Positions 2,886 to 62,227 of a stretch of 64,000 nucleotides of DNA are shown here, piece by piece. A program made the position numbers and the translations under genes. The DNA comes from Felis catus (lineage: Eukaryota): assembly GCF_018350175.1 (NCBI RefSeq), contig NC_058368.1, forward strand, positions 49,973,815 through 50,037,814, written 5' to 3'. Under the pieces are notes generated by a model that did not search any database, was not told the DNA's origin, and saw only the letters and a list, made by a program, of their open reading frames with translations. Each line of letters starts with the position of its first letter. Within the stretch, counting starts at the first letter, position 1.

Positions 2886-3721
2886 AAATGATGCATTTTT
2901 AATACATTTTTTTTCCTCTCCTCCTTTTTTTCCCCCTCTCACCTAAAACTTATTTTGTGATGGTGTACTTTTGTAAATCATCAGCTTCATTCAACACAAA
3001 CATATATTAAGACTTTATTGGGAAATTGACATTATTCACATTACTTTTTCTTTTTCCCTCTGCAGTAGATTAGGGTCTGACATTTTATTTTCCTGTGAAA
3101 TCTTAAGAGTTTAAAAAAATACTAATCTTCTGTTATACTCGTTTTACCAGGTATGAGAGACAGTGGAGTCGAGTGGGTTTCATTGTGTACTAGAGGTCAG
3201 GAAGCCAGTTTACTTCTAGCATTTTCTGGCATTCATATAATCACTTGGACTCTTTTGGCTTTATGTACTTTTTGCTCATTGATGTAATTTGTGATATCTG
3301 TCTATCTTTAAACCTCAGGCGTCATTTTTGGTAAGTAGGATAAACTGTGTTGATCATCTAATATAATTGTTTATTTGAGAGAACTTAAAATACATCTTCC
3401 TAAAAGTCATTGTAGTGAAAATGAGTTTAACATATCAACCAAGCTAAGCTGTATGTGTTTGGTGAAGTCCTGGCTTATTATGTTTAATCCCAAAGTAATG
3501 GATTTTGAAAAGGATTTTGCTTAATATAAACTTTTAATGTTTGTTAATTGATATAAATAAATTGCTATCTCTTCTCACCCTATTCGTGGAAAACCTTTAC
3601 TTTTCTTGCTGAACATTAGTAATAAGTATACCTTGCATTCACTTTATTTATTAGATGTGCAGTAATACATGTTATTTCCCTGTTAATGTTGCAATGTTTG
3701 TTTGTTTTCAACTTTTACCAG

Positions 3722-3850
3722 TTTCTCAAACAATTAGGTCTACATCCTAACTGGCAGTTTGTTGATGTATATGGAATGGATCCTGAACTTCTTAGCATGG
3801 TACCAAGACCAGTGTGTGCAGTGTTACTTCTCTTCCCTATTACAGAAAAG
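3722..3850 (+). CDS. UCHL3: UCHL3 coding exon 3 ([43 protein letters not shown])
   Basis: Acceptor ttttaccag at 3720-3721 and donor gtactt at 3851; 129 nt, phase 0-0; translation matches UCH-L3 residues 19-61. Confidence 0.98.
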
Positions 3851-8101: not shown

Positions 8102-8258
8102 TATGAAGTATTCAGAACGGAGGAGGAGGAAAAAATAAAGTCTCAGGGACAAGATGTTACGTCATCAGTATATTTCATGAAGCAAACAATCAGCAATGCC
8201 TGCGGAACAATTGGACTCATCCATGCTATTGCCAACAATAAAGACAAGATGCACTTTG
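8102..8258 (+). CDS. UCHL3: UCHL3 coding exon 4 ([52 protein letters not shown]), contains catalytic Cys95
   Basis: ttttaatag acceptor and gtaaat donor; 157 nt; QTISNACGT motif with TGC at 8201-8203. Confidence 0.98.
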
Positions 8259-8655
8259 GTAAATAATTTTTTATTACTGCTTGTCCATCACCTCCCCCCA
8301 ACCCCAGCCACCAGAAGTCATGAGTTGACTTATTGAGCAGTAGGTGGTGCTGTGGTTCTTTCTTTTAAAGTATCAAATAAAGCATTTTCCTTTCTTTTTC
8401 TTCTTTTTTTCCCCTAGTGGGAATGTATATACTGTTAGAAGAAATATTAATCTTTCCCATTCTTTTATAATGTTGATAAAAAGAGGTTTCACAAAAAACT
8501 TAAAGCCTATCATTTATCCCAGTATTCTTATATTCCCAACTTAGCAGTGAAAGGGTTTTTATCTAAAAAAAAAAGAGCATGCTTCTAGTATTTTCATATA
8601 TCAGTGTCTTTGAGATAACAAACCTTCTCAATTTTATCTTCTTTAATATTCTCAG

Positions 8656-8741
8656 AATCTGGATCAACCTTGAAAAAATTCCTAGAGGAGTCTGTGTCAA
8701 TGAGCCCCGAAGAACGAGCCAGATACCTAGAGAACTATGAC
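8656..8741 (+). CDS. UCHL3: UCHL3 coding exon 5 ((E)[28 protein letters not shown])
   Basis: attctcag acceptor and gtcggt donor; 86 nt restores phase 0; overlaps ORF 8670-8864. Confidence 0.96.
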
Positions 8742-9569
8742 GTCGGTACCTTCTTTCTGTCTCGATCTCATTTACGGGCAGTTTTGTGGGATTGTAGATA
8801 CTTTTGGGATGTTTGTCTTGAAACTTTAGTTTTGAGCAATTATGGATTTTATTGTGTCCGTTAAAAAAGACCTTCTGTACTTCATGTAACATTACCTGAA
8901 ATATCCAGAAATGTTGATGAATTGCCACTTCTTTTCTACATCTAGAGCTGAATGACAGAAAAAAAGTTTGATTTACAAATTTTTAAAATATTTTATGATT
9001 GACTGTTCCTTACCACTCCCTCCCCATAGTAAATAGATGCCTGCCAATGCCCTGTGTGTGTTTCACTGGGAATTTGGAACAAGGCTGAAGACCAGTGGAA
9101 AAAACAAAGGCTTAAGGCTAGATGTCAGATCATATGTTAGCTATTCTATCAGCTTAGTAATGTTTTTGCCTGTGTGAAGACATAATCTACTTGTACCATT
9201 TCATAGAATTGTTTTAGAGTGACATTTAAATCTTACTGGTTTTGGACTCTTATTTTTCTTTTGAAGGACTTTTTAACTTTAATTAACACTACTAGGTAGA
9301 TGTTAAGTTCTTTGGAATTAGAAGGAGTATAATGTACAGATTATTTGGCTAGAAAAATGCCTTATACAGAGTTTGTGTCCAATAGATTCATTGATTTCAT
9401 CATGTTTTAGCATTCTTACCTACTTTGACTATCTTAAATTGTTTTTTCTTTAAAAAACCTGCAGATCATAAAACATCTTTATTTTACACAAAAGTAAATT
9501 AAACAACATAAAAGTCACCAGTAATCCTACCAATAAGAAGTAGCTGCCATTATTAATATTTTTATAGGG

Positions 9570-10568: not shown

Positions 10569-10616
10569 GCTATCCGAGTCACTCATGAGACCAGTGCCCA
10601 TGAAGGTCAGACTGAG
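10569..10616 (+). CDS. UCHL3: UCHL3 coding exon 6 (AIRVTHETSAHEGQTE)
   Basis: cattacag acceptor and gtattt donor; 48 nt, phase 0-0; start of the crossover loop. Confidence 0.97.
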
Positions 10617-26726: not shown

Positions 26727-27334
26727 TTATTTATGTATTTCTGATTGACTGGTTCTTATTAAGAGCCACTGAAGTGTTCACAAACATGTTTTTTAAACCC
26801 TCATCACAGAGATAGCTTTATTTTAGGTTAGTGTATTGTTTATATAGATTGAAAGTACTAAGTAGGATCATAAAATTTTCAGGGTTCAGAGAGTCCTAGA
26901 AATCATTCAGGGAAAAACATGTCATTTTCCTGAAGAGAATAAGGTCATGGTTAGTGAAATTATTGCTTCCCAAGGACTCATATTACTATTCTTATTGCTG
27001 CTTCTCACTATGGTTATAAATGATTATAGTTTTTTCATACTGCTTTAAATCAATTTTTTTTATTTCATGTACTGGTTGTATTTATTGGAAGTAGCAATCA
27101 TAAAATTATCATTTGGATTACCATTAATAAGTTAGGTATTGTAATGTGCATTTTGTGGAAAACTGTTGGACCAGATTCAACGTTTGTGGTATAATTATGT
27201 TTGAAAGTTTCCACTCTCAAAATATCTAATTTTAAGAGGATTATACTTCTTGTTATTAGAATCTAGTCTAATAAATTAGTAATAAAATCTTTCTTGTGGA
27301 CAGTTGGGCAATACATCAAGGTGATTCTACACAT

Positions 27335-27565
27335 TGCATTCCAGAACCAGATTTCCTGTATTTGAATCCCATCCCTGCCACTTGCTAGCACTGTGGCCTT
27401 TATATTGGTTATATCGGTTGTATTCATTAACCTCTATGTGCTCTGATTCCTCATTTGCAAAATGGGAATATAGTACCTATCTCATGGGTTACTGGGAGAT
27501 TAATGAATTCATATATGTAAAGTGCTTAAAGGAGTGCCCAGGACAAAATAAGTGGTACATATTTT
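27335..27565 (+). mobile_element. MIR
   Basis: ttgaatccc...gccacttgctagc...ttaacctct.tgtgctctg.ttcctcatttgcaaaatggg...atgtaaagtgctta. Confidence 0.85.
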
Positions 27566-28159
27566 AACTAACACTGTTGATTACTAAAAGATGGCTAGTA
27601 GGCTGTGATAGTTTCTATTTGTCAGCCTAAGTAAGAGGGTAGTTTATGCAAGCCATCAGCTTCAGAGGGGTTAAATTTCACTCCTCTTTATATTCTGAAG
27701 GGGGTTTTTCCCCCCTTAGAGCTTATTCTCGCTAAGGAATTCTTTTCACCAGTGCCTCTGTCACCATTCAGTTTTCTTCTACACATTATTTTTTGTTTTG
27801 TATGTGTAACATATTGTGTGTTCTCCGTGTGTGTGTGTGTGTGCCTGTTTTTTAAACCATTTGATGTAATAATTCCATTTTAGTGGCTTTTAAAGAATTC
27901 CATGAGTCTGTGTTATGCAAATGAGGATAGGTAAACATTTTAGATGGGTACTTACAGAAGCTATGGCATATAACCTGATACTTGGTTATATATTTCCACT
28001 TTATCTAGTTTTAACCAATATTCATATATAATTCTTTCTGGATTATGGTTGGTTAAAGTACTAGACCATATAAATACAAATATGACCATACGTTGCTTTG
28101 AAAAAATAAATGATCGCCCAGTAACGTGGTCTAAGTATAATGTTCTCTTTTTTAATTAT

Positions 28160-28990
28160 GTAGTCCTCCTCGCCATCCTCATCACAGCCTCATTCTAGCC
28201 ACTGCAGAACGAAGGCCTCATCATTGTGTCACCATGCATCCCTGCCCTGGGTCAAACGTAACCATGTAGGCCCTGCAAAGGCTACCAGTCCATCTCTCCG
28301 TCTTCGTCGCTGGCGACCCTTCTTACGCCTACCATCTATGGGTCTCCATTCTGTTGTAAGTGTAGTCAATCTTCCATCTCTTCTTCCAGTGACAAGGATA
28401 GTCCATTTTTTTTCCCTACACTTCTTCAGTCTTCAAAGTGCTTTTCTCTTGGTTCACTCAACCATTAGCTTTTTCTCCCCCAATAAGATTGCAAGCATAC
28501 CTCTATGCTTTGCAGTCTAGCTTGACTTTCACCAGTGCCTCGGTGAACATTCATCTTCCCACTCCATATCCCGCCAACATAAGGATGCCTGCCTTTTGAT
28601 GAGTACTGATTGACGTTCATGATAATGTTTAAGTTCCTGTCAGTTGTTAAAGTGAATATGTATTCTCTTACCCTTCATCTTTATGATTTCATTTAGTTGA
28701 CTTAGGTCAACAAATGCTATGTACCTTCTGAGTTCTTTGCCATCTCTTTGGTTTTTTTTTTTTTTTTTTTTTTTCATGTTTCTGAGCATGACTATAGTCT
28801 CTTGTCATGCTCTGGGGTCACTTTACTTACTCTATCCTTAACCTAATCCTTCCATGGTGTAGGGTGTTTCATCTAAGCTATTTTATTCCCTGAGGTGTCT
28901 CAGGTACTTGGTTTAATCTTGATCCAATCTTCCCTGCCTATTCAGTTTCTAAAGATCTTTTCCAAGTAGGAGGTGAAGATTTTCTCCTTG
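28160..28990 (-). mobile_element. Ancient RTE-clade LINE fragment (RT and C-terminal region plus 3' tail)
   Basis: Minus-strand translations IFTSYLEKIFRN*, KYLRHLR, ILMLAGYGVGR*MFT, RGMLAIL and KKWTILVTGRRDGRLTTLTTEWRPIDGRRKKGRQRRRRRDGLVAFAGPTWLRLTQGRDAW*HNDEAFVLQWLE* followed by a GAT/GAG-type tail; collinear with RTE ORF motifs. Confidence 0.8.
28164..28355 (+). CDS. UCHL3: Candidate alternative in-frame cassette exon of UCHL3 (64 aa: SSSPSSSQPHSSHCRTKASSLCHHASLPWVKRNHVGPAKATSPSLRLRRWRPFLRLPSMGLHSV)
   Basis: Acceptor tgttctcttttttaattatgtag and consensus donor gtaagt at 28356; 192 nt, no stop, phase 0-0 matching intron 6; GC/CpG-rich patch in an AT-rich intron. Confidence 0.72.
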
Positions 28991-29861
28991 TGAATTGATG
29001 TAGGCTTCCCACAAGTTTTATGATTTCTCCTTCTTAGGTTGATAATATTAGCAAACTATTAAAAAGTGCATTCTTTCTTTTAATCTTGCTAATTATCTTA
29101 AATGTTGAGGTTGATGGTGGAATTCTAATAATTCTCATAATTGACATCAACTGCAGGGTTAGGCAACTCCAGCTCTATCTTTCTGCTGTTTTAGACTTAT
29201 ATAGCAATGACTTTCATTTGGCAGAGCCTACCTAGAAATGCTACCTCTGAAAGATTTGGTGTATGCCATCCATTTATGAAAAACTTCATGCTTCTGGAAA
29301 TCATCATGACTTTTGAAGCTAGAGGAAGTCTCATTCCTCATACATTTAATGCTTCAATAAATTGAAAGTTGATGTCAAACATTCTTTCTTCCCCTTTATG
29401 TACTCTTTTAGAGCTATGCTCAAACTGTGAAGCAGAGTTTTGACAGTTTTCCTAAAATATGTACATCCCCCAAATATCAGTATGGTCATAAAATAGCCTT
29501 TCATTTGTGCTGAGTATCAAGCAACAAACTGGTGTCTATTTCATTTTCCTCATTGGATCACAACATGCATTTGCCATTTTTATTCATTTACCTGTTTAAT
29601 ATTTTTTGCTTCCCTACTGTGCCACACATTGGCATAGTAGGAGATATAAGGTGAATTATAGGACCAGAGTAAAACCCTAATTTTGTAAATTCTAACTTGG
29701 GCACAATTGATTCTAAATATTCCTTTGTACTTTTAAAATATTCTGAATATAAATGAACATATCATAAAGTTGGTGTTTCCAGTTTTATATGATTTTATAT
29801 AAGTTTGATCTTTGCTTTCCATATTAATTCTGTTGCTTTATCGCTTCATAAATATTTTCAT

Positions 29862-30055
29862 AGCATAGCGTGGATTCTGGAACTACCCTGCCTGAGTTTG
29901 AAACCAGATTCCATCACTTCCTAGCTGTATAACAGTTTTCTTGAGTACAAATGAGTGTATTACCTGCCTCATAGAGTTTATATGATGATTCATTGGTCAG
30001 TACTTTAAGTACATAAACATATACCAGTGCCTGGTATATATTAAGTATCAGATAA
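29862..30055 (+). mobile_element. MIR
   Basis: agcgtggattctgga...ctgcctgagtttgaa.cc...cacttcctagctgt...acct.cctcatagagtt. Confidence 0.75.
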
Positions 30056-32635: not shown

Positions 32636-32711
32636 GCACCAAGTATAGATGAAAAAGTAGATCTTCATTTTATTGCATTAGTTCATGTAGATGGGCATCT
32701 CTATGAATTAG
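32636..32711 (+). CDS. UCHL3: UCHL3 coding exon 7 ([25 protein letters not shown]), contains catalytic His169
   Basis: ctcctatttcag acceptor and gtaaga donor; 76 nt; CAT at 32666-32668. Confidence 0.98.
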
Positions 32712-38416: not shown

Positions 38417-38719
38417 CTAGGATTTTAACTTTTTAAAAACTGGCTTACTAGTTTTGCTTTTCTTAGGGAAATTAAAACTGTGTATGTTTCTAAATCTTCT
38501 GTTTATGAAGCTAATTTAGACTTTCAAACATGGAAGCAAGGTTCTAATAACATTTAATGTAGAAAAATATTGATAGCACATTTGAAATCGTTTTTATAGG
38601 ATATATCATTTCCATTATCTTTTAACTTTGCCTCCCTGTGGGAGGAGGAAGATGCAAGCTGGAAGTACATTGTCCTGTATAAGCAGCTAAACGTTTAACT
38701 GTTTCTTAATTTTCCACAG

Positions 38720-38778
38720 ATGGACGGAAACCATTTCCAATTAACCATGGGGAAACTAGTGATGAAACTTTATTAGAG
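38720..38778 (+). CDS. UCHL3: UCHL3 coding exon 8 ((D)[19 protein letters not shown]); the Asp184 codon is split across exons 7/8
   Basis: tttccacag acceptor and gtaaca donor; 59 nt. Confidence 0.98.
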
Positions 38779-39344: not shown

Positions 39345-39428
39345 GATGCCATAGAAGTTTGCAAGAAGTTTATGGAACGTGACCCTGATGAATTGAGGTT
39401 CAATGCAATTGCTCTATCTGCAGCATAG
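39345..39428 (+). CDS. UCHL3: UCHL3 last coding exon 9 (DAIEVCKKFMERDPDELRFNAIALSAA*)
   Basis: ttttgtccctatag acceptor; TAG stop at 39426-39428; matches the UCH-L3 C-terminus. Confidence 0.98.
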   Translation, partial: DAIEVCKKFMERDPDELRFNAIALSAA

Positions 39429-57468: not shown

Positions 57469-58014
57469 CATGCTCATTTTGCACATAGATCTTCCTTCAT
57501 ATCCTTAGGATAAATTCCCAGAAGTGAAATTGCTGCAACAGAGCACAGATAGTTAAAAAACTTTTTAATATTTATTGCCCAATTACCTTCCAGAAAGATT
57601 GTACCACTTTCTCCCACCAACAGTTCATCGGTAACATATAACACATGACAGTTGTACTGTTTTTAAATAATGAAAGTATCTCCAATTCTCCTGGAAAATG
57701 AGTAATATTTTTGATGTTTTATTGTTGTGAATTTAATTGTAAACTCCTCAGGTAGGTTACTTTTCTTTATAGGGCTGATTCAATCTTTCCAGAAGGTTAA
57801 AACGCTCACTCTCATGCCTGATAGAAGGCAAAGATTTGGATTTGGGTTTTCTGACTTGCAAATTTGCATCATTAAAGAGACAGAAATGGCTGCTGCCTGA
57901 GCTGATTTGAAACCAAATTGGCAATGGGAATACTTGAGCAAATAAATGAAATCCCCATTTATAAGGAAAAAATCCATATTTGACACACTACTGTTAAAGA
58001 GACTAATGGGAAAT

Positions 58015-58190
58015 AACCATTATTTACTTAGTGTCCTCCTATGCCAAGCAGTGCCCTAGGCTTTTACATACACCATCCTATTTAATTTTCACAACCTTAT
58101 TTACTTTGAAGTAGTAATTATCAGCACAATTTTCAGACGAGGAAATTGAAGCTCAGCGTGTCTGGTGACTTGGTAACTTCAGTCATTCAT
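58015..58190 (-). mobile_element. MIR
   Basis: ctatgccaagca.tg..ctagg..ttttacata...atttaat.ttcacaacc...attttcaga.gaggaaa.tgaagctcag. Confidence 0.75.
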
Positions 58191-58404
58191 ATTCGTGTCT
58201 ATGTGCTTCTTACCAACCTGGGCTGTTACCCCCATAGCTTTAGGTCAAGTTACAGAGCAGTAGCTTTAAACAGTGTAGTATATGTACATAGTAACTGTAG
58301 TAACAATAACTCTTATGAAGCTTGGGGAATGTCTGTCCTTCTCCTGGACTAGAAGTACATAGGAGTCTGTCTAACAAGACAATGCCATTCTTAAAAAAAA
58401 AAAA

Positions 58405-58700
58405 AGCAGGAATTTGAGAAACAAAACAAACAAGCAAAGGGGGAAAGAATGAACGAGAGAGAGGCAAATCAAGAAACAGACTCTTCAATACAGAAAACTG
58501 ATGGTTATGAGAGGGGAGGGGTGTGTGGGGATGGGTTAAATAGGTGCTGGGGATTAAGGAGGGCACTTGTCCTGATGAGCACAGGGTGATGTATGGAAGT
58601 GTTGAAAAACTACATTGTATACCTGAAACTAATATAACATTGTATGTTAACTGGAATTAAAATAAAAACTTAAAAAAATTCAGTAATAAAAAATAAAAAA
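58405..58700 (+). mobile_element. Carnivore L1 3' end
   Basis: agaaacaaaacaaa...agaaacagactctt...gggattaaggagggcacttgt..tgatgagcac.gggtgatgtatggaagtgttgaa...ctggaattaaaataaaaacttaaaa. Confidence 0.88.
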
Positions 58701-58744
58701 GCGGGTTGGGGGCATTGAAAGAGGAAGCCATTCTAGGTTAAAAA

Positions 58745-59115
58745 AAGATGTAACCAAATGCAACGTGTGGTCATTGTTTGGATTCTGTTCTGAGTAAGAC
58801 AGCTGTAAAAGACATTTTGGGATCAGTGGGGGAATTTGAGTCCGGATTGGGTATAAATTGACACTGGGTAATTGTTAGCTTTGGTTAGAGGTGAAAATGG
58901 TAATATGATTTTGTAGACAAGTGTCCTTTAAAAAAAAAGAGATTCATATTGTACTATTTTGGGGTGAAGTATAATAATATCTATCTTTAAGCAGGAAATG
59001 AAGGTGATAAGCAAATAAGGCAAAATGCAAACGATTGTTAACTATAGGCGCTAGGTTTTAGCTTTTCATTACACTAGACTCCCTGCTCCTTACTTGTTTA
59101 CTCTTTATGATGAAA
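58745..59115 (+). mobile_element. Old L1 (L1ME/MC-like) 3' end
   Basis: aaccaaatgcaa.gtgtggtc.ttg.ttggatt...gctgtaaaagacattttggga...ggggaatttga. Confidence 0.7.
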
Positions 59116-59319
59116 AACGACATCAATCAACCGGAAAAACGAAAGTAAGGGGTTATTTACGGGAGTAAGAACCGATCTTTATCTTCCTCCAAAGGTGACG
59201 CCATCAACATGTGGCCTAAACAGGGTTTCAGGAGTTTCAAGCGAGGTCCCAGGGAGACTAGACCAACGAACACATTCCTTTCCGAAGACCTGACTTTCGT
59301 GTGAACAGAGACCTCACGT

Positions 59320-60980
59320 AAGCCTTGAGCCTCCGAGCCTCCAGCCCCGGACCTACCCAGGACCGCTGCGGCCACTGAATAACCTGTCACCCTACCGACC
59401 GACGCTCGGGGTAAGCGCGGGAGAAACTCAGGTGGCCACCCGCTCGCATCCTTTGCGACGCGATCCAGGTCCCTTCCACCTCACCCACCTGGAAGCGGGG
59501 AGGAGCGGGGCCGGCTTAGTGTGGGGGGAAATGGGCGGCACGCGCTCGGGCCACTACCCCCACCTGCCGCCAGGAGGGCCCGGGCGGCACAAGGGGGCGG
59601 AGAACTTGGGGTGGGGAAGGCCGCGCACCTGGCTGCGGGGCTGCGCGCAGCGGGACGGCGGGCTCCGGCCGCAGGTGAGGGCGGCGGGCTGGGCGGCTGC
59701 GCGTCGCGGAGGGCCGCGCTCCTCCACCGGGGAAGTTTCTTGGCCCGGAAAGGTGCAATTGTGTGCAGCTATTTCTGGTATGTCAGGCGGGCCGGGCGGC
59801 CGAAAGCCGAGGGGGCGCCTCTTACCGGGGCCCCGGGACATGGAAGGCGGCCAGGCGGGCAGAGGCTGGAAGGATGCGGGCGTGGGGGCGCCGTCCCTCG
59901 GGGCGGAGCCGCGGTCTGGGCGGGCAGCGCGGGAGCGGGAGCGTGGTCTCGGCCACGGCCTCCTGGCGGCCGGTGGCATCCCCTGGCCCAGACAGTCTGA
60001 CCACAAAGGCGGCTGCGGCCGGGAGCCCCGGGGAGCCGCAGGGGGGGCGGACGGAAGCGGCGACTCTGCGGCTCGCGGTGGGCGGCGGGGTGGGCTGGGG
60101 CGGGGCCATTCCGGGGAGGGCGGCGGCTGCGGCGTTGCGACTTTTGAAGTCCAAACAGTTGCCCGGCTGGTGAGACGCGCCGCCTCTAGTCCCCCGTCCA
60201 CCTCCCGCGCCCTGTCCGGCTGCCCGGAGCCCCGGGGTTGTTTTCAGGAGTTGAGAGGAAGCCACGTCTTCAGGTTCTCGTGGGTTCGAAACTTTAGCGA
60301 ACTGCAGAGAGCAACAAAGGGAAAGAGAACCCGGGAGCCTCGCAGCTTGAGCAGAGGCCGGGCGCCGGGGCCAGACGCGCGCGGGACCCCCCGCCCCTCC
60401 GTGCACTCACCGCGTCTCTCTCTCTCCCTCTTACCCTAGTCCTGGAAGGGATGGAGGAGGCCGGGGCCGACTGCGCCCTGGCGTTCGCCGAGGCCCAGAG
60501 ATGGGTGGAGGTGAGTGCCTTTACCATTTTCCGCACGAGTTTGCGGCCTCGAGGCCGCTCCCGCCGATCTGCGCCCCAGCCTCCTCCCGGGACCTGCGCC
60601 GGCGCGTGGCAGCTGGTTGGCTTTGCAGTTTGGGGGACTTTGCAAGTCCTGCTTCTCTGATCTTTTAACGTCCAGCTGAGCTTAGTGCTGCGCTCCCCAC
60701 GACAGCCTCGCTGGCTTCCCCAGAGCTCCTCTGCCAGGGCTCAGTGCAGAGCCGAGCGTTCGCCCTCTTGGGTTCGGGGACCGCGCATCCTTGTGAGCCA
60801 GACCACGTCAGCACAGGGGCAGAGTCGACCCCGCGTCCTCCGGAGCGGTTCTTTGCGGTGGTTACAGTGGGGATGCCCGACACTTACCTGCGCAGGGTAT
60901 TTCGTGTGTGTGGTGTGGGAGGGTGAGTGGAGGAGGTTGGACGCTAAAGTCGCATCCGGAGAGATATTTTCTCGCGCGCG
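59320..60980. promoter_or_regulatory. LMO7: CpG island / LMO7 promoter
   Basis: Very high GC and CpG density, several GGGCGG (Sp1) boxes, surrounds the LMO7 start exon. Confidence 0.92.
60451..60510 (+). CDS. LMO7: LMO7 first coding exon (MEEAGADCALAFAEAQRWVE), start of the calponin-homology domain
   Basis: gggATGG Kozak context; AFAEAQRWVE motif of LMO7/LIMCH1; consensus donor GAG|gtgagt at 60511; position downstream of UCHL3 fits known synteny. Confidence 0.93.
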
Positions 60981-62227
60981 GCATCTGGAGTCAAGGTTTT
61001 TACTTATTCAAAGTCGGCGTTGATGAGACTAAGATCTCCTGGGGTCACTCACTGACCCCGGTTGTGCCTTAGGGACAAGATCTTCCATTCCCTTTTCCCC
61101 CCGTCGAAATGGAGATGGTCTCTAGGAGGTTTCTTCGTCAACACCTAAGGTTGCACTTATCTGTAAAAAAGTTAACACCAGGACTTGCACCCGCTATTCT
61201 GCTGGATGAAAAAGGTGACTTTTTAAATGATGCTAAGGCAGTCTTCAGAACAGATGTGAGCCAGGAACAACCGCTTGTTAGAAAATTGTTGCCTACACCA
61301 GCCTTGCAGTTATTTAGGAGTTATAGATGCCACGTGCTGGCTTACTCAAGGTATTTAAAAATGCAGATTAGGTTTAAAGGTTATTCCAGCGGGGGGGGGG
61401 GGGGGGGGGGAGGAACCAGCATATTTAGGAATTCCCAAAGCACACAATGTTTAAGAAGAATTAATTTGTCCTTAAGAAAACAAATGTATATATGGGGGGA
61501 AAGAAGAGAATAAACTTTCAGTGTTCCATTTCTAACAGTAAATAAAGGAATGTGAAATGTGAGTAGGGGGGTCAAGAAATCAGCTGTTGATGTCCTTTTT
61601 TGGACTGAAACTTTGAGCTAGTCTGAAGGTGACTTAGAAGGTTGGGGTGGGGGGAAGGTGTGAGGGGAGGGTATGCAGAGGTTGAGAGAAGAATAAACAG
61701 TGTATTTTGAATTGAAATGAGAGTTGGGAAAATTCCAGCAGTGCCGTTGAGAGAAATGACTTCCCTCATTCATAAACTTTGAAAGACCAGGGCATCCAAA
61801 GGTAATTTTCCATTAGTAGGATTTGTTCTTCATAATTTTAGAAAAGAAATTAAAGTTGCCTTTTTGGTTTTGAGTGTTAGGGCCGGAGGGAGAGAGAAGG
61901 GAAGAACTATGGGGACACTTTTGGTCATACGTGATTCCTATAAGGTGTTTGTATCTGCGTGCTCTGTATTTGCACAGGAAATCTATGAATATGGATGATT
62001 TCACACTTTCCTTGTTTAGTATACAGATTTTTGAAGTCTAAAAAATTCCTTGTTTGTTTTAGCTTGCTCATGACGGTGTAGGCTTTCTGTGAGAAATTTG
62101 CATCTAACAAACCCTAGGGAAGTGTGTTGCAGTAAAAGATATCATAGTGCAGGGTATACGTGCTCACCTTCCCACTCTCAAACGTCCCCTCTAAACGCGT
62201 TTTTTTCATCTTTAGCAGAGAGACCAT

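Follow-up and report, generated by a model that had tools for sequence, protein, structure and literature searches.

The deubiquitinase gene UCHL3 of the cat (Felis catus) raises the question of how a long intron came to hold a short exon that is open in the frame of the gene and, on the opposite strand, reads like the end of a retrotransposon protein. The stretch analysed, referred to below as the window, comprises 64 kb (contig NC_058368.1, positions 49,973,815 to 50,037,814; G000:C1:49973815-50037814 in our numbering) in a 2.43-Gb genome of 71 contigs, and its base composition is AT-rich and vertebrate-like. The 22-kb UCHL3 intron between positions 10616 and 32636 holds both the fossil of a long interspersed nuclear element (LINE) and a 64-codon cassette exon. 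The explanation favoured here, and considered very probable, is that the antisense strand of the tail of an RTE-type LINE was exonized into UCHL3 and has been kept as an alternative exon of amniotes.

The protein signal lies on the minus strand. An earlier sequence-only reading of this DNA had taken the exon for the antisense of an RTE-clade LINE; its translation of 28420-28160 is reproduced letter for letter, both TGA stops included, and is followed by ggctgtgatgaggatggcgaggag. An 80-residue peptide from this strand, with one stop written as X, was searched with HMMER against 1.84 billion representative proteins and gives 186 matches at E<=1e-3. The five best come from this locus in other species; many independent matches follow at E 1e-8 to 1e-6, and the other long ones align at their extreme C-terminus (P0069, residues 892-967 of 971; P0133, 772-843 of 843; P0160, 571-648 of 651). 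Pfam families in 15 of the longer matches include RVT_1 in ten (nine above the curated cut-off) and an APE-type endonuclease in three; one has a weak DDE_3 and three have none. When the other 146 listed matches (P0027-P0172) are compared with the window by tblastn, 179 high-scoring segment pairs appear at E<=1: 147 on the minus strand at 28000-28399, one near 28945-29010 and 31 scattered. A profile of 326 positions was built from the tails of 19 proteins with APE and reverse transcriptase (RT) domains and scanned against all 64 kb in six frames. It matches 28193-28510 on the minus strand with an independent E-value of 6.8e-21 (profile positions 216-324), with no frameshift and one three-residue gap. 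The similarity to RTE-type open reading frames (ORFs), on which the sequence-only reading had said it would stand or fall, is by HMMER and profile highly significant at the protein level. A Pfam scan of four window peptides yielded nothing useful, and the LINE tail matched here is no Pfam family.

The preserved part of the fossil contains three internal TGA stops (28456-54, 28435-33 and 28231-29). There are zero frame changes between 28513 and 28187, and at least three farther upstream in the element. Its nearest intact relatives are P0027 (54% identity) and the full-length kin P0265-P0271; five of the latter (P0265, P0266, P0268, P0269 and P0271) are proteins of 916-984 amino acids (aa) with PF03372/PF14529 plus PF00078, encoded on contigs of 3.2-3.5 kb. 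P0069 likewise has APE and RVT_1 domains within 971 aa. The window is 38-43% identical to the last ~110 aa of the full-length relatives. A TGA at 28192-28190 falls where related ORFs end, and the sequence after it reads GGC TGT GAT GAG GAT GGC GAG GAG GA, a degenerate trinucleotide tail.

Farther 5' in the element, the four minus-strand strings cited in the sequence-only reading are all present, but as LINE remnants they are weakly supported; they lie in three different frames. RGMLAIL (28504-28484) is in the frame of the core, ILMLAGYGVGR*MFT (28586-28542) is in another, and KYLRHLR (28909-28889) and IFTSYLEKIFRN (28980-28945) are in two different frames. The second of these, a YG.ETW-type piece, gives no profile score in the cat genome itself. 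In P0023, an orthologous antisense ORF from another mammal, the frame stays unbroken and the profile aligns as far as position 193, with YGVERW against YGaeTW, and in a bird ORF (P0025) the motif is weakly present. The next-best profile match in the window (28915-28986, profile positions 41-64, independent E-value 2.7) is collinear with the core and is the best of the three weak matches that remain; joining it to KYLRHLR with an X at the frame break raises the score from 1.0 to 7.4 bits. The tblastn match in the 28945-29010 region has E 0.33. The probable 5' limit of the recognisable element is therefore placed at about 29010, where it is faint; the last ~110 residues are well kept and ~300 residues are kept faintly. 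The decayed part also contains a perfect run of 23 T on the plus strand (28752-28774), which a younger insertion splitting the fossil may have left as its tail.

A paralogue with the same terminus, as an interspersed repeat should leave, exists elsewhere in the genome. The search with the window peptide scores only the best candidates, so that copy counts are lower bounds; it gives one other match, at E 6.7e-7, among 14 listed at E<=10. This copy, L003 (G000:C46:39060897-39064049, positions 1514-1726), lies on another contig and is 74% identical at the DNA level to window positions 28380-28175 over 202 aligned nucleotides. The alignment scores 88, against 22±2.5 (maximum 36) for 200 shuffles, and it ends in the tail. 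Both copies have the TGAGGCTG.GAT continuation, after which L003 reads gat cat gat aat atc gat. L003 is the only detectable paralogue of the fossil, and it may also be under constraint, because 74% identity has been kept after more than 300 million years (My). When the intact relative P0027 is searched against the 2.4-Gb genome, the UCHL3 locus alone is found at E<=0.01 (E 2.2e-15; 27 candidates scored), which fits one copy that was kept. In a control with full-length P0069 and a stricter first-pass filter, only L1-like ORF2 copies are retrieved, and their matches end by residue 787. L1-type copies never reach the tail, so the tail is no generic LINE feature; for counting RTE fossils in the genome, full-length P0069 was rejected. 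The same genome carries dozens of L1-type ORF2 copies with uninterrupted 1303-aa frames on many contigs (e.g. C17:137322595-137324541), and L1 thus looks recently active in the cat genome.

On the plus strand the exon has one open frame, the other two containing stops, and it lies in frame between UCHL3 exons. Its translation (SSSPSSSQPH...GLHSV) has an isoelectric point of 12 and contains 15 Ser, 7 Pro and 7 Arg among 64 residues. Its poly-Ser start comes from the GAT/GAG tail read in reverse complement, as the sequence-only reading had proposed; in birds and the crocodile this tail is longer (EDSEDDDD on the minus strand, SSSSSLSSPP on the plus strand). The acceptor region corresponds, in reverse complement, to an A-rich run that directly follows the trinucleotide tail and may have belonged either to the element or to the target site. 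The donor is the reverse complement of ACTTAC within the LINE codons ACA CTT ACA (T-L-T). L003 has ACTTAC at the aligned place too, so the donor-like hexamer probably pre-existed in the family. With splice signals at the edge of the element and inside it, and with the host frame kept, the locus has the features of an exonized transposable element (TE).

The exon is used, in frame, by UCHL3 gene models of many amniotes. A protein search with the 64-residue cassette finds 22 proteins at E<=0.01 among 85 candidates, at 81-100% identity: 17 named UCHL3 isoforms, one named hypothetical bat protein and four unnamed contig ORFs. Placental matches are 92-100% identical, those of marsupials 95-97% and bird-type sequences 81-83%; repeating the search with the bird cassette adds no further taxa. 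Together with 68 cluster members, 90 proteins (UCHL3 gene models or ORFs) were examined. Eleven lack the cassette and 79 carry it, among them placentals, marsupials, birds and a crocodile, and in all 79 it is open and in UCHL3 phase. It is spliced between HEGQTE and APSIDEK in 42 carriers, among which are pinnipeds, bats, deer, rodents, cetaceans, a hedgehog, chimpanzee, marsupials, Crocodylus porosus and at least ten bird species. In 34 others the reading continues past the donor into the intron, and three have other arrangements. Four marsupial models (P0009, P0223, P0231 and P0233) contain an extra insert of ~38 residues (GAELGPKSGSYWEANF...HMDCHVE) directly upstream of the cassette, and a dolphin model has a different short insert at that place; the same intron thus seems to yield other lineage-specific alternative exons.

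The read-through models suggest another product. The exon could be an alternative terminal one, giving a truncated UCHL3 without the catalytic His and Asp that acts in a regulatory or dominant-negative way, and the long-loop enzyme would then not be the main product. The 34 read-through carriers, which continue into ...VVSVVNLPSLLPV..., come mainly from primates, cetaceans, cattle and bats, with the four unnamed contig ORFs besides; plus-strand poly(A) signals follow at 29058 and 29356, and the downstream flank of the cassette is conserved. Against this stand the 42 models spliced onward, which include every cassette-bearing model from birds, the crocodile and marsupials, and a donor that is a perfect GTAAGT. 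The read-through peptide, moreover, diverges fast and contains frameshifts between species, and is therefore not conserved as protein. As the main conserved role of the exon, that of a terminal exon is considered unlikely. The reading preferred here is a splice-controlled long-loop isoform with a relaxed substrate filter, with the truncated, inactive read-through form as a serious alternative or an addition to it.

Conservation is the second ground on which the exon can be judged. Between bird-type ORFs and the window, 47-52 of the 64 residues of the exon are identical on either strand. In the downstream intronic part the corresponding figures are 19 of 53 on the minus strand and, on the plus strand, 8 of 15 followed by 13 of 39; the flanking part of the element has about 33-53% identity at this depth. 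Among mammals the flanks are 79-84% identical in the minus-strand reading. In 13 aligned isoforms, marsupials and duck included, 45 columns of the 64-residue cassette are invariant. Its identity is within the range of the constitutive UCHL3 exons, which are 67-93% identical between cat and duck, and the cassette is therefore as conserved as ordinary coding exons. The exon retains 8 CpG dinucleotides (observed/expected ratio 0.64) against a ratio of 0.22 in the whole intron and no CpG at all in 28356-28520. The proposal that purifying selection after exonization preserved the 3' end of the LINE is thus supported, at the amino-acid level only, by conservation that is higher in the exon than across the remainder of the element; a comparison offered as a possible refutation came out in its favour. 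The related claim that the exon part is less decayed stands for CpG retention and conservation, with the qualification that the well-preserved, frameshift-free part extends ~155 nucleotides (nt) past the exon to 28510. As this part runs beyond the exon, the intronic flank downstream is under constraint too. In the intron, the ~150 nt that come first after the cassette (28356-28520, plus strand) are conserved among mammals and partly to birds, contain no UGCAUG, and may be a splicing-regulatory flank.

The two reading frames share their wobble positions. Plus-strand codons begin at 28164 and minus-strand codons occupy, for example, 28231-28229, so that third positions coincide on both strands, and position 1 or 2 of a UCHL3 codon is position 2 or 1 of a LINE codon. 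Selection on the UCHL3 frame would therefore also freeze the first and second positions of the LINE frame, which would account for the legibility of the fossil, the best preserved of its family in the genome. Because the wobble positions coincide, amino-acid data do not separate the two strands as targets of selection. In the cat, two TGA lie inside the exon in the antisense frame, at places that read TGG in birds and in another mammal; on the plus strand one of the TGA/TGG sites is visible as Ser versus Pro (KASSLC versus KASPLC). The antisense stops, together with the splice signals and the UCHL3 phase, point to the plus strand as the selected one.

The same data can be read as conservation for a reason other than protein. 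The block might be a splicing or transcription element or act as RNA, in which case the coding isoforms would be by-products of low abundance or of gene modelling, and the LINE origin would still hold. Conservation continues beyond both splice sites, for ~150 nt after the donor and for some distance before the acceptor, the cassette isoforms are all predicted models, and the peptide is of low complexity, basic and without a Pfam family. In the consulted passages of the UCHL3 review PMC12278599, isoforms are not discussed. Set against these points, the exon exceeds its flanks in conservation at bird depth, the frame is open and in phase in every carrier, and both splice signals are consensus-like. 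A scan of 27000-30000 against Rfam gives no match at E<=1, UGCAUG is absent from the vicinity, and the exon, taken with or without its near flanks, has a folding energy that is ordinary against shuffles (z -0.8 and -0.6; control flank -2.4). A purely non-coding role is therefore regarded as decidedly unlikely, and protein-level retention of the exonized LINE tail is retained as the better account.

In the passages of PMC2887409 drawn on here, RTE elements are described as ~3.3 kb long, with a single ORF of ~1000 aa that encodes an APE endonuclease and RT; their 3' untranslated region is extremely short, with simple (often trinucleotide) repeats right after the stop, and 3'-partial copies are frequent. 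The window and L003 both have a stop followed by a trinucleotide repeat, and the single-ORF architecture is present in the closest relatives, while the window itself keeps only the end of the ORF. From ORF architecture and tail type, there is good but not complete support for an RTE-type LINE. Compared with known RTE-clade LINEs (e.g. RTE-1, Bov-B and Rex3), the fossil is alike in ending as the C-terminus of a single-ORF APE+RT protein of ~920-985 aa, in its stop and trinucleotide repeat, and in the survival of its 3' part. It differs in lacking a recognisable RT domain, in being non-functional (four stops, upstream frameshifts) and in being over 300 My old. Candidate mammalian families are the ancient MamRTE1 and the L4/L5-type.

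An origin from another LINE clade with a similar C-terminal tail (CR1, L2 or another APE-type element) has in its favour that the RT domain is unpreserved in the window and that the database relatives compared carry no clade label, being unnamed or, in one short HMMER match, having just the source name 'endonuclease-reverse transcriptase'. It is nonetheless held to be very improbable: the relatives are APE+RT proteins of ~920-985 aa on 3.2-3.5-kb contigs that end a few residues past the motif, the trinucleotide repeat begins within a few bases of the stop in both copies, this ORF size, architecture and repeat are the RTE features given in the consulted part of PMC2887409, and L1-type ORF2 copies in the cat genome do not match the tail. 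That the antisense likeness arose by chance or from composition, an Arg-rich frame lying opposite an exon rich in Ser and Pro, as the partly low-complexity peptide (RRKKGRQRRRRRDG) and the empty Pfam result might suggest, can be dismissed, contradicted as it is by the many independent HMMER matches, the tail profile, the Trp, Gly, Asp and Phe positions that align outside the Arg run in the tblastn alignments, and the L003 DNA paralogue with the same tail.

A course of events for the exonization of an RTE-type tail can be proposed. Before the amniote ancestor, an RTE-type copy, 5'-truncated or since decayed, would have inserted antisense in the 22-kb UCHL3 intron. The A-rich DNA past its trinucleotide tail would have provided a polypyrimidine tract with AG, and the tail itself the poly-Ser start of the exon. 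Read on the other strand, the Arg/Trp/Gly-rich end of the ORF would by chance have left 64 codons open in the frame of UCHL3, and the ORF codons ACA-CTT-ACA, when reversed, would have supplied a consensus GTAAGT donor. Mammals, birds and crocodilians would since have retained the resulting 192-nt stretch as an alternative exon of UCHL3. Inclusion would place 64 residues between E158 and A159, ten residues before the catalytic His; if the donor is left unused, as in the read-through models, the product would lack the C-terminal catalytic residues and be inactive.

Several points weigh against this explanation. Every named cassette isoform is a predicted model, and exon usage in the cat is likewise predicted. 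Read-through accounts for 34 of the 79 carriers, and four of these, the unnamed contig ORFs, may be genomic DNA. Lizards, turtles, monotremes and amphibians are absent from the sequences examined. Cassette lengths differ between lineages (64, 63 and about 70 codons) within the trinucleotide repeat, and that the differences are multiples of three is uninformative because trinucleotide slippage yields multiples of three anyway. Conservation runs ~150 nt into the intron, so that part of the constraint is non-coding, and the coinciding wobble hides whether third positions are freer, which is the sign of protein-level selection. Finally, the RTE-clade call is drawn from ORF architecture and tail type.

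Alignment to 1UCH puts the insertion of the cassette between residues 158 and 159 (E158/A159), and the His of DLHFIAL is residue 169, ten residues after the insertion point. The insertion thus falls in the crossover loop, between the preceding helix and the strand of the catalytic His. In the parts of PMC12409989 and PMC9501053 consulted, the crossover loop spans the active site and leads into the strand whose first residue is the catalytic His, and a longer loop enables UCHL3 to cleave K48 di-ubiquitin in vitro; a 20-residue element of the loop is disordered in free human UCHL3 (PMC12409989). The cassette would be a stretch of 64 basic, Ser/Pro/Arg-rich residues in the active-site crossover loop and is probably disordered. 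An AlphaFold2 model of the 294-aa isoform from a 13-sequence alignment has a mean predicted local distance difference test (pLDDT) score of 40.9, with cassette blocks at 20-29 and no secondary structure there; as the whole model is poor, the low cassette pLDDT is no evidence for disorder.

By analogy with engineered loops, a natural long-loop isoform would be expected to have a relaxed substrate-size filter. The engineered UCHL3 loop extensions (Zhou et al. 2012, Popp et al. 2009, as related in the consulted parts of PMC9501053 and PMC12409989) were made by design, whereas the insertion here is a natural splice insertion of 64 residues with a predicted activity. A more speculative proposal, considered doubtful at present, is that a long-loop UCHL3 has existed for more than 300 My, in which the basic insert opens the loop filter or retargets the enzyme. 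Splicing would then switch between a small-adduct hydrolase and a form for chains or large conjugates, and the LINE fossil would have been kept only through the shared wobble. The site matters, as loop length reportedly sets the substrate size of UCHL3, and the cassette therefore offers a testable natural-isoform hypothesis.

The case belongs to the class of ancient TE exonization and exaptation and is unusual in age, conservation and protein position. Exons formed from antisense Alu, MIR and L2 copies are for the most part recent and confined to single lineages; they are included at low levels and often break the frame. The UCHL3 exon resembles them in that an A-rich 3' end yields the polypyrimidine tract with AG and a cryptic donor lies inside the element; unlike them, it is amniote-wide, frame-preserving and conserved like constitutive exons. 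Most exonized repeats are young and poorly included, and frame-preserving TE-derived coding exons conserved across all amniotes are rare. A closer parallel is an ultraconserved alternative exon of PCBP2, which Bejerano et al. in 2006 are said to have traced to an LF-SINE, a short interspersed nuclear element (SINE). In both, an ancient retroposon fragment serves as a highly conserved alternative exon in deep vertebrate lineages; the SINE has no ORF, whereas the UCHL3 exon is the antisense of a LINE coding region with which it shares wobble positions.

Pre-amniote fossils in the human genome have been catalogued, with 13 RTE fossils listed and 28 BovB and 4 RTE-X counted in the portion of the study used here (Frith 2022; PMC9004415). 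Those fossils are likewise LINE ORF fragments older than the amniote ancestor that survive through exaptation; they are putative regulatory elements, whereas the present one is a coding exon on the opposite strand. UCHL3 was not found in the main text or in one supplement of that study, and the locus could have been excluded because the pipeline discarded protein-coding overlaps (Frith 2022; PMC9004415, in part). Full-text literature searches found no paper that ties UCHL3 to an exon of TE origin or to an ultraconserved one. Many automatic annotations already include the exon, and the locus may already stand in RepeatMasker or Dfam annotation or in supplementary tables of TE exons. Beyond this gene, the shared wobble is a simple general reason why protein fossils of TEs can stay legible for hundreds of millions of years, and its geometry can be used to find other antisense exaptations.

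The features of the locus are listed below by position. The UCHL3 exons were located by tblastn with the 294-aa isoform.

Table 1. UCHL3 exons, cassette splice signals and remnants of the LINE in the window
Feature	Positions	Strand	Basis
UCHL3 exon	3719-3850	+	tblastn with 294-aa isoform
UCHL3 exon	8102-8257	+	tblastn with 294-aa isoform
UCHL3 exon	8655-8744	+	tblastn with 294-aa isoform
Constitutive UCHL3 exon upstream of the cassette, ending ...AIRVTHETSAHEGQTE	10569-10616	+	tblastn
Polypyrimidine tract and AG acceptor, tctcttttttaattatgtag followed by TCC; AG at 28162-63	28144-28163	+	sequence; gene-model junction HEGQTE/SSS
Alternative UCHL3 exon, 192 nt (64 codons)	28164-28355	+	open frame; UCHL3 isoform matches
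Degenerate GAT/GAG-type trinucleotide tail, GGCTGTGATGAGGATGGCGAGGAGGA	28164-28189	-	sequence; common to paralogue L003
TGA at the end position of related LINE ORFs	28190-28192	-	0-4 residues after ...LQWT.NG
Preserved C-terminal ~110 residues of an RTE-like LINE ORF	28193-28513	-	profile, tblastn, alignment to relatives
Donor GTAAGT	28356-28361	+	sequence; spliced models join GLHSV to APSIDEK
Decayed YG.ETW-type piece, ILMLAGYGVGR*MFT	28542-28586	-	position and orthologous ORF
Weak, frame-shifted remnants of the end of the RT domain (GKPTS..IFTSYLEKIFRN; KYLRHLR)	28889-29010	-	tblastn, profile
Constitutive UCHL3 exon downstream of the cassette, with the catalytic His	32636-32710	+	tblastn; 1UCH alignment
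UCHL3 exon	38710-38778	+	tblastn with 294-aa isoform
UCHL3 exon	39345-39425	+	tblastn with 294-aa isoform

Outside the gene, the GC content rises to 0.50-0.54 at 58000-62000, against about 0.35 elsewhere, some 19 kb downstream of the last UCHL3 exon; the rise has the look of a CpG island, presumably marking where a neighbouring gene has its promoter.

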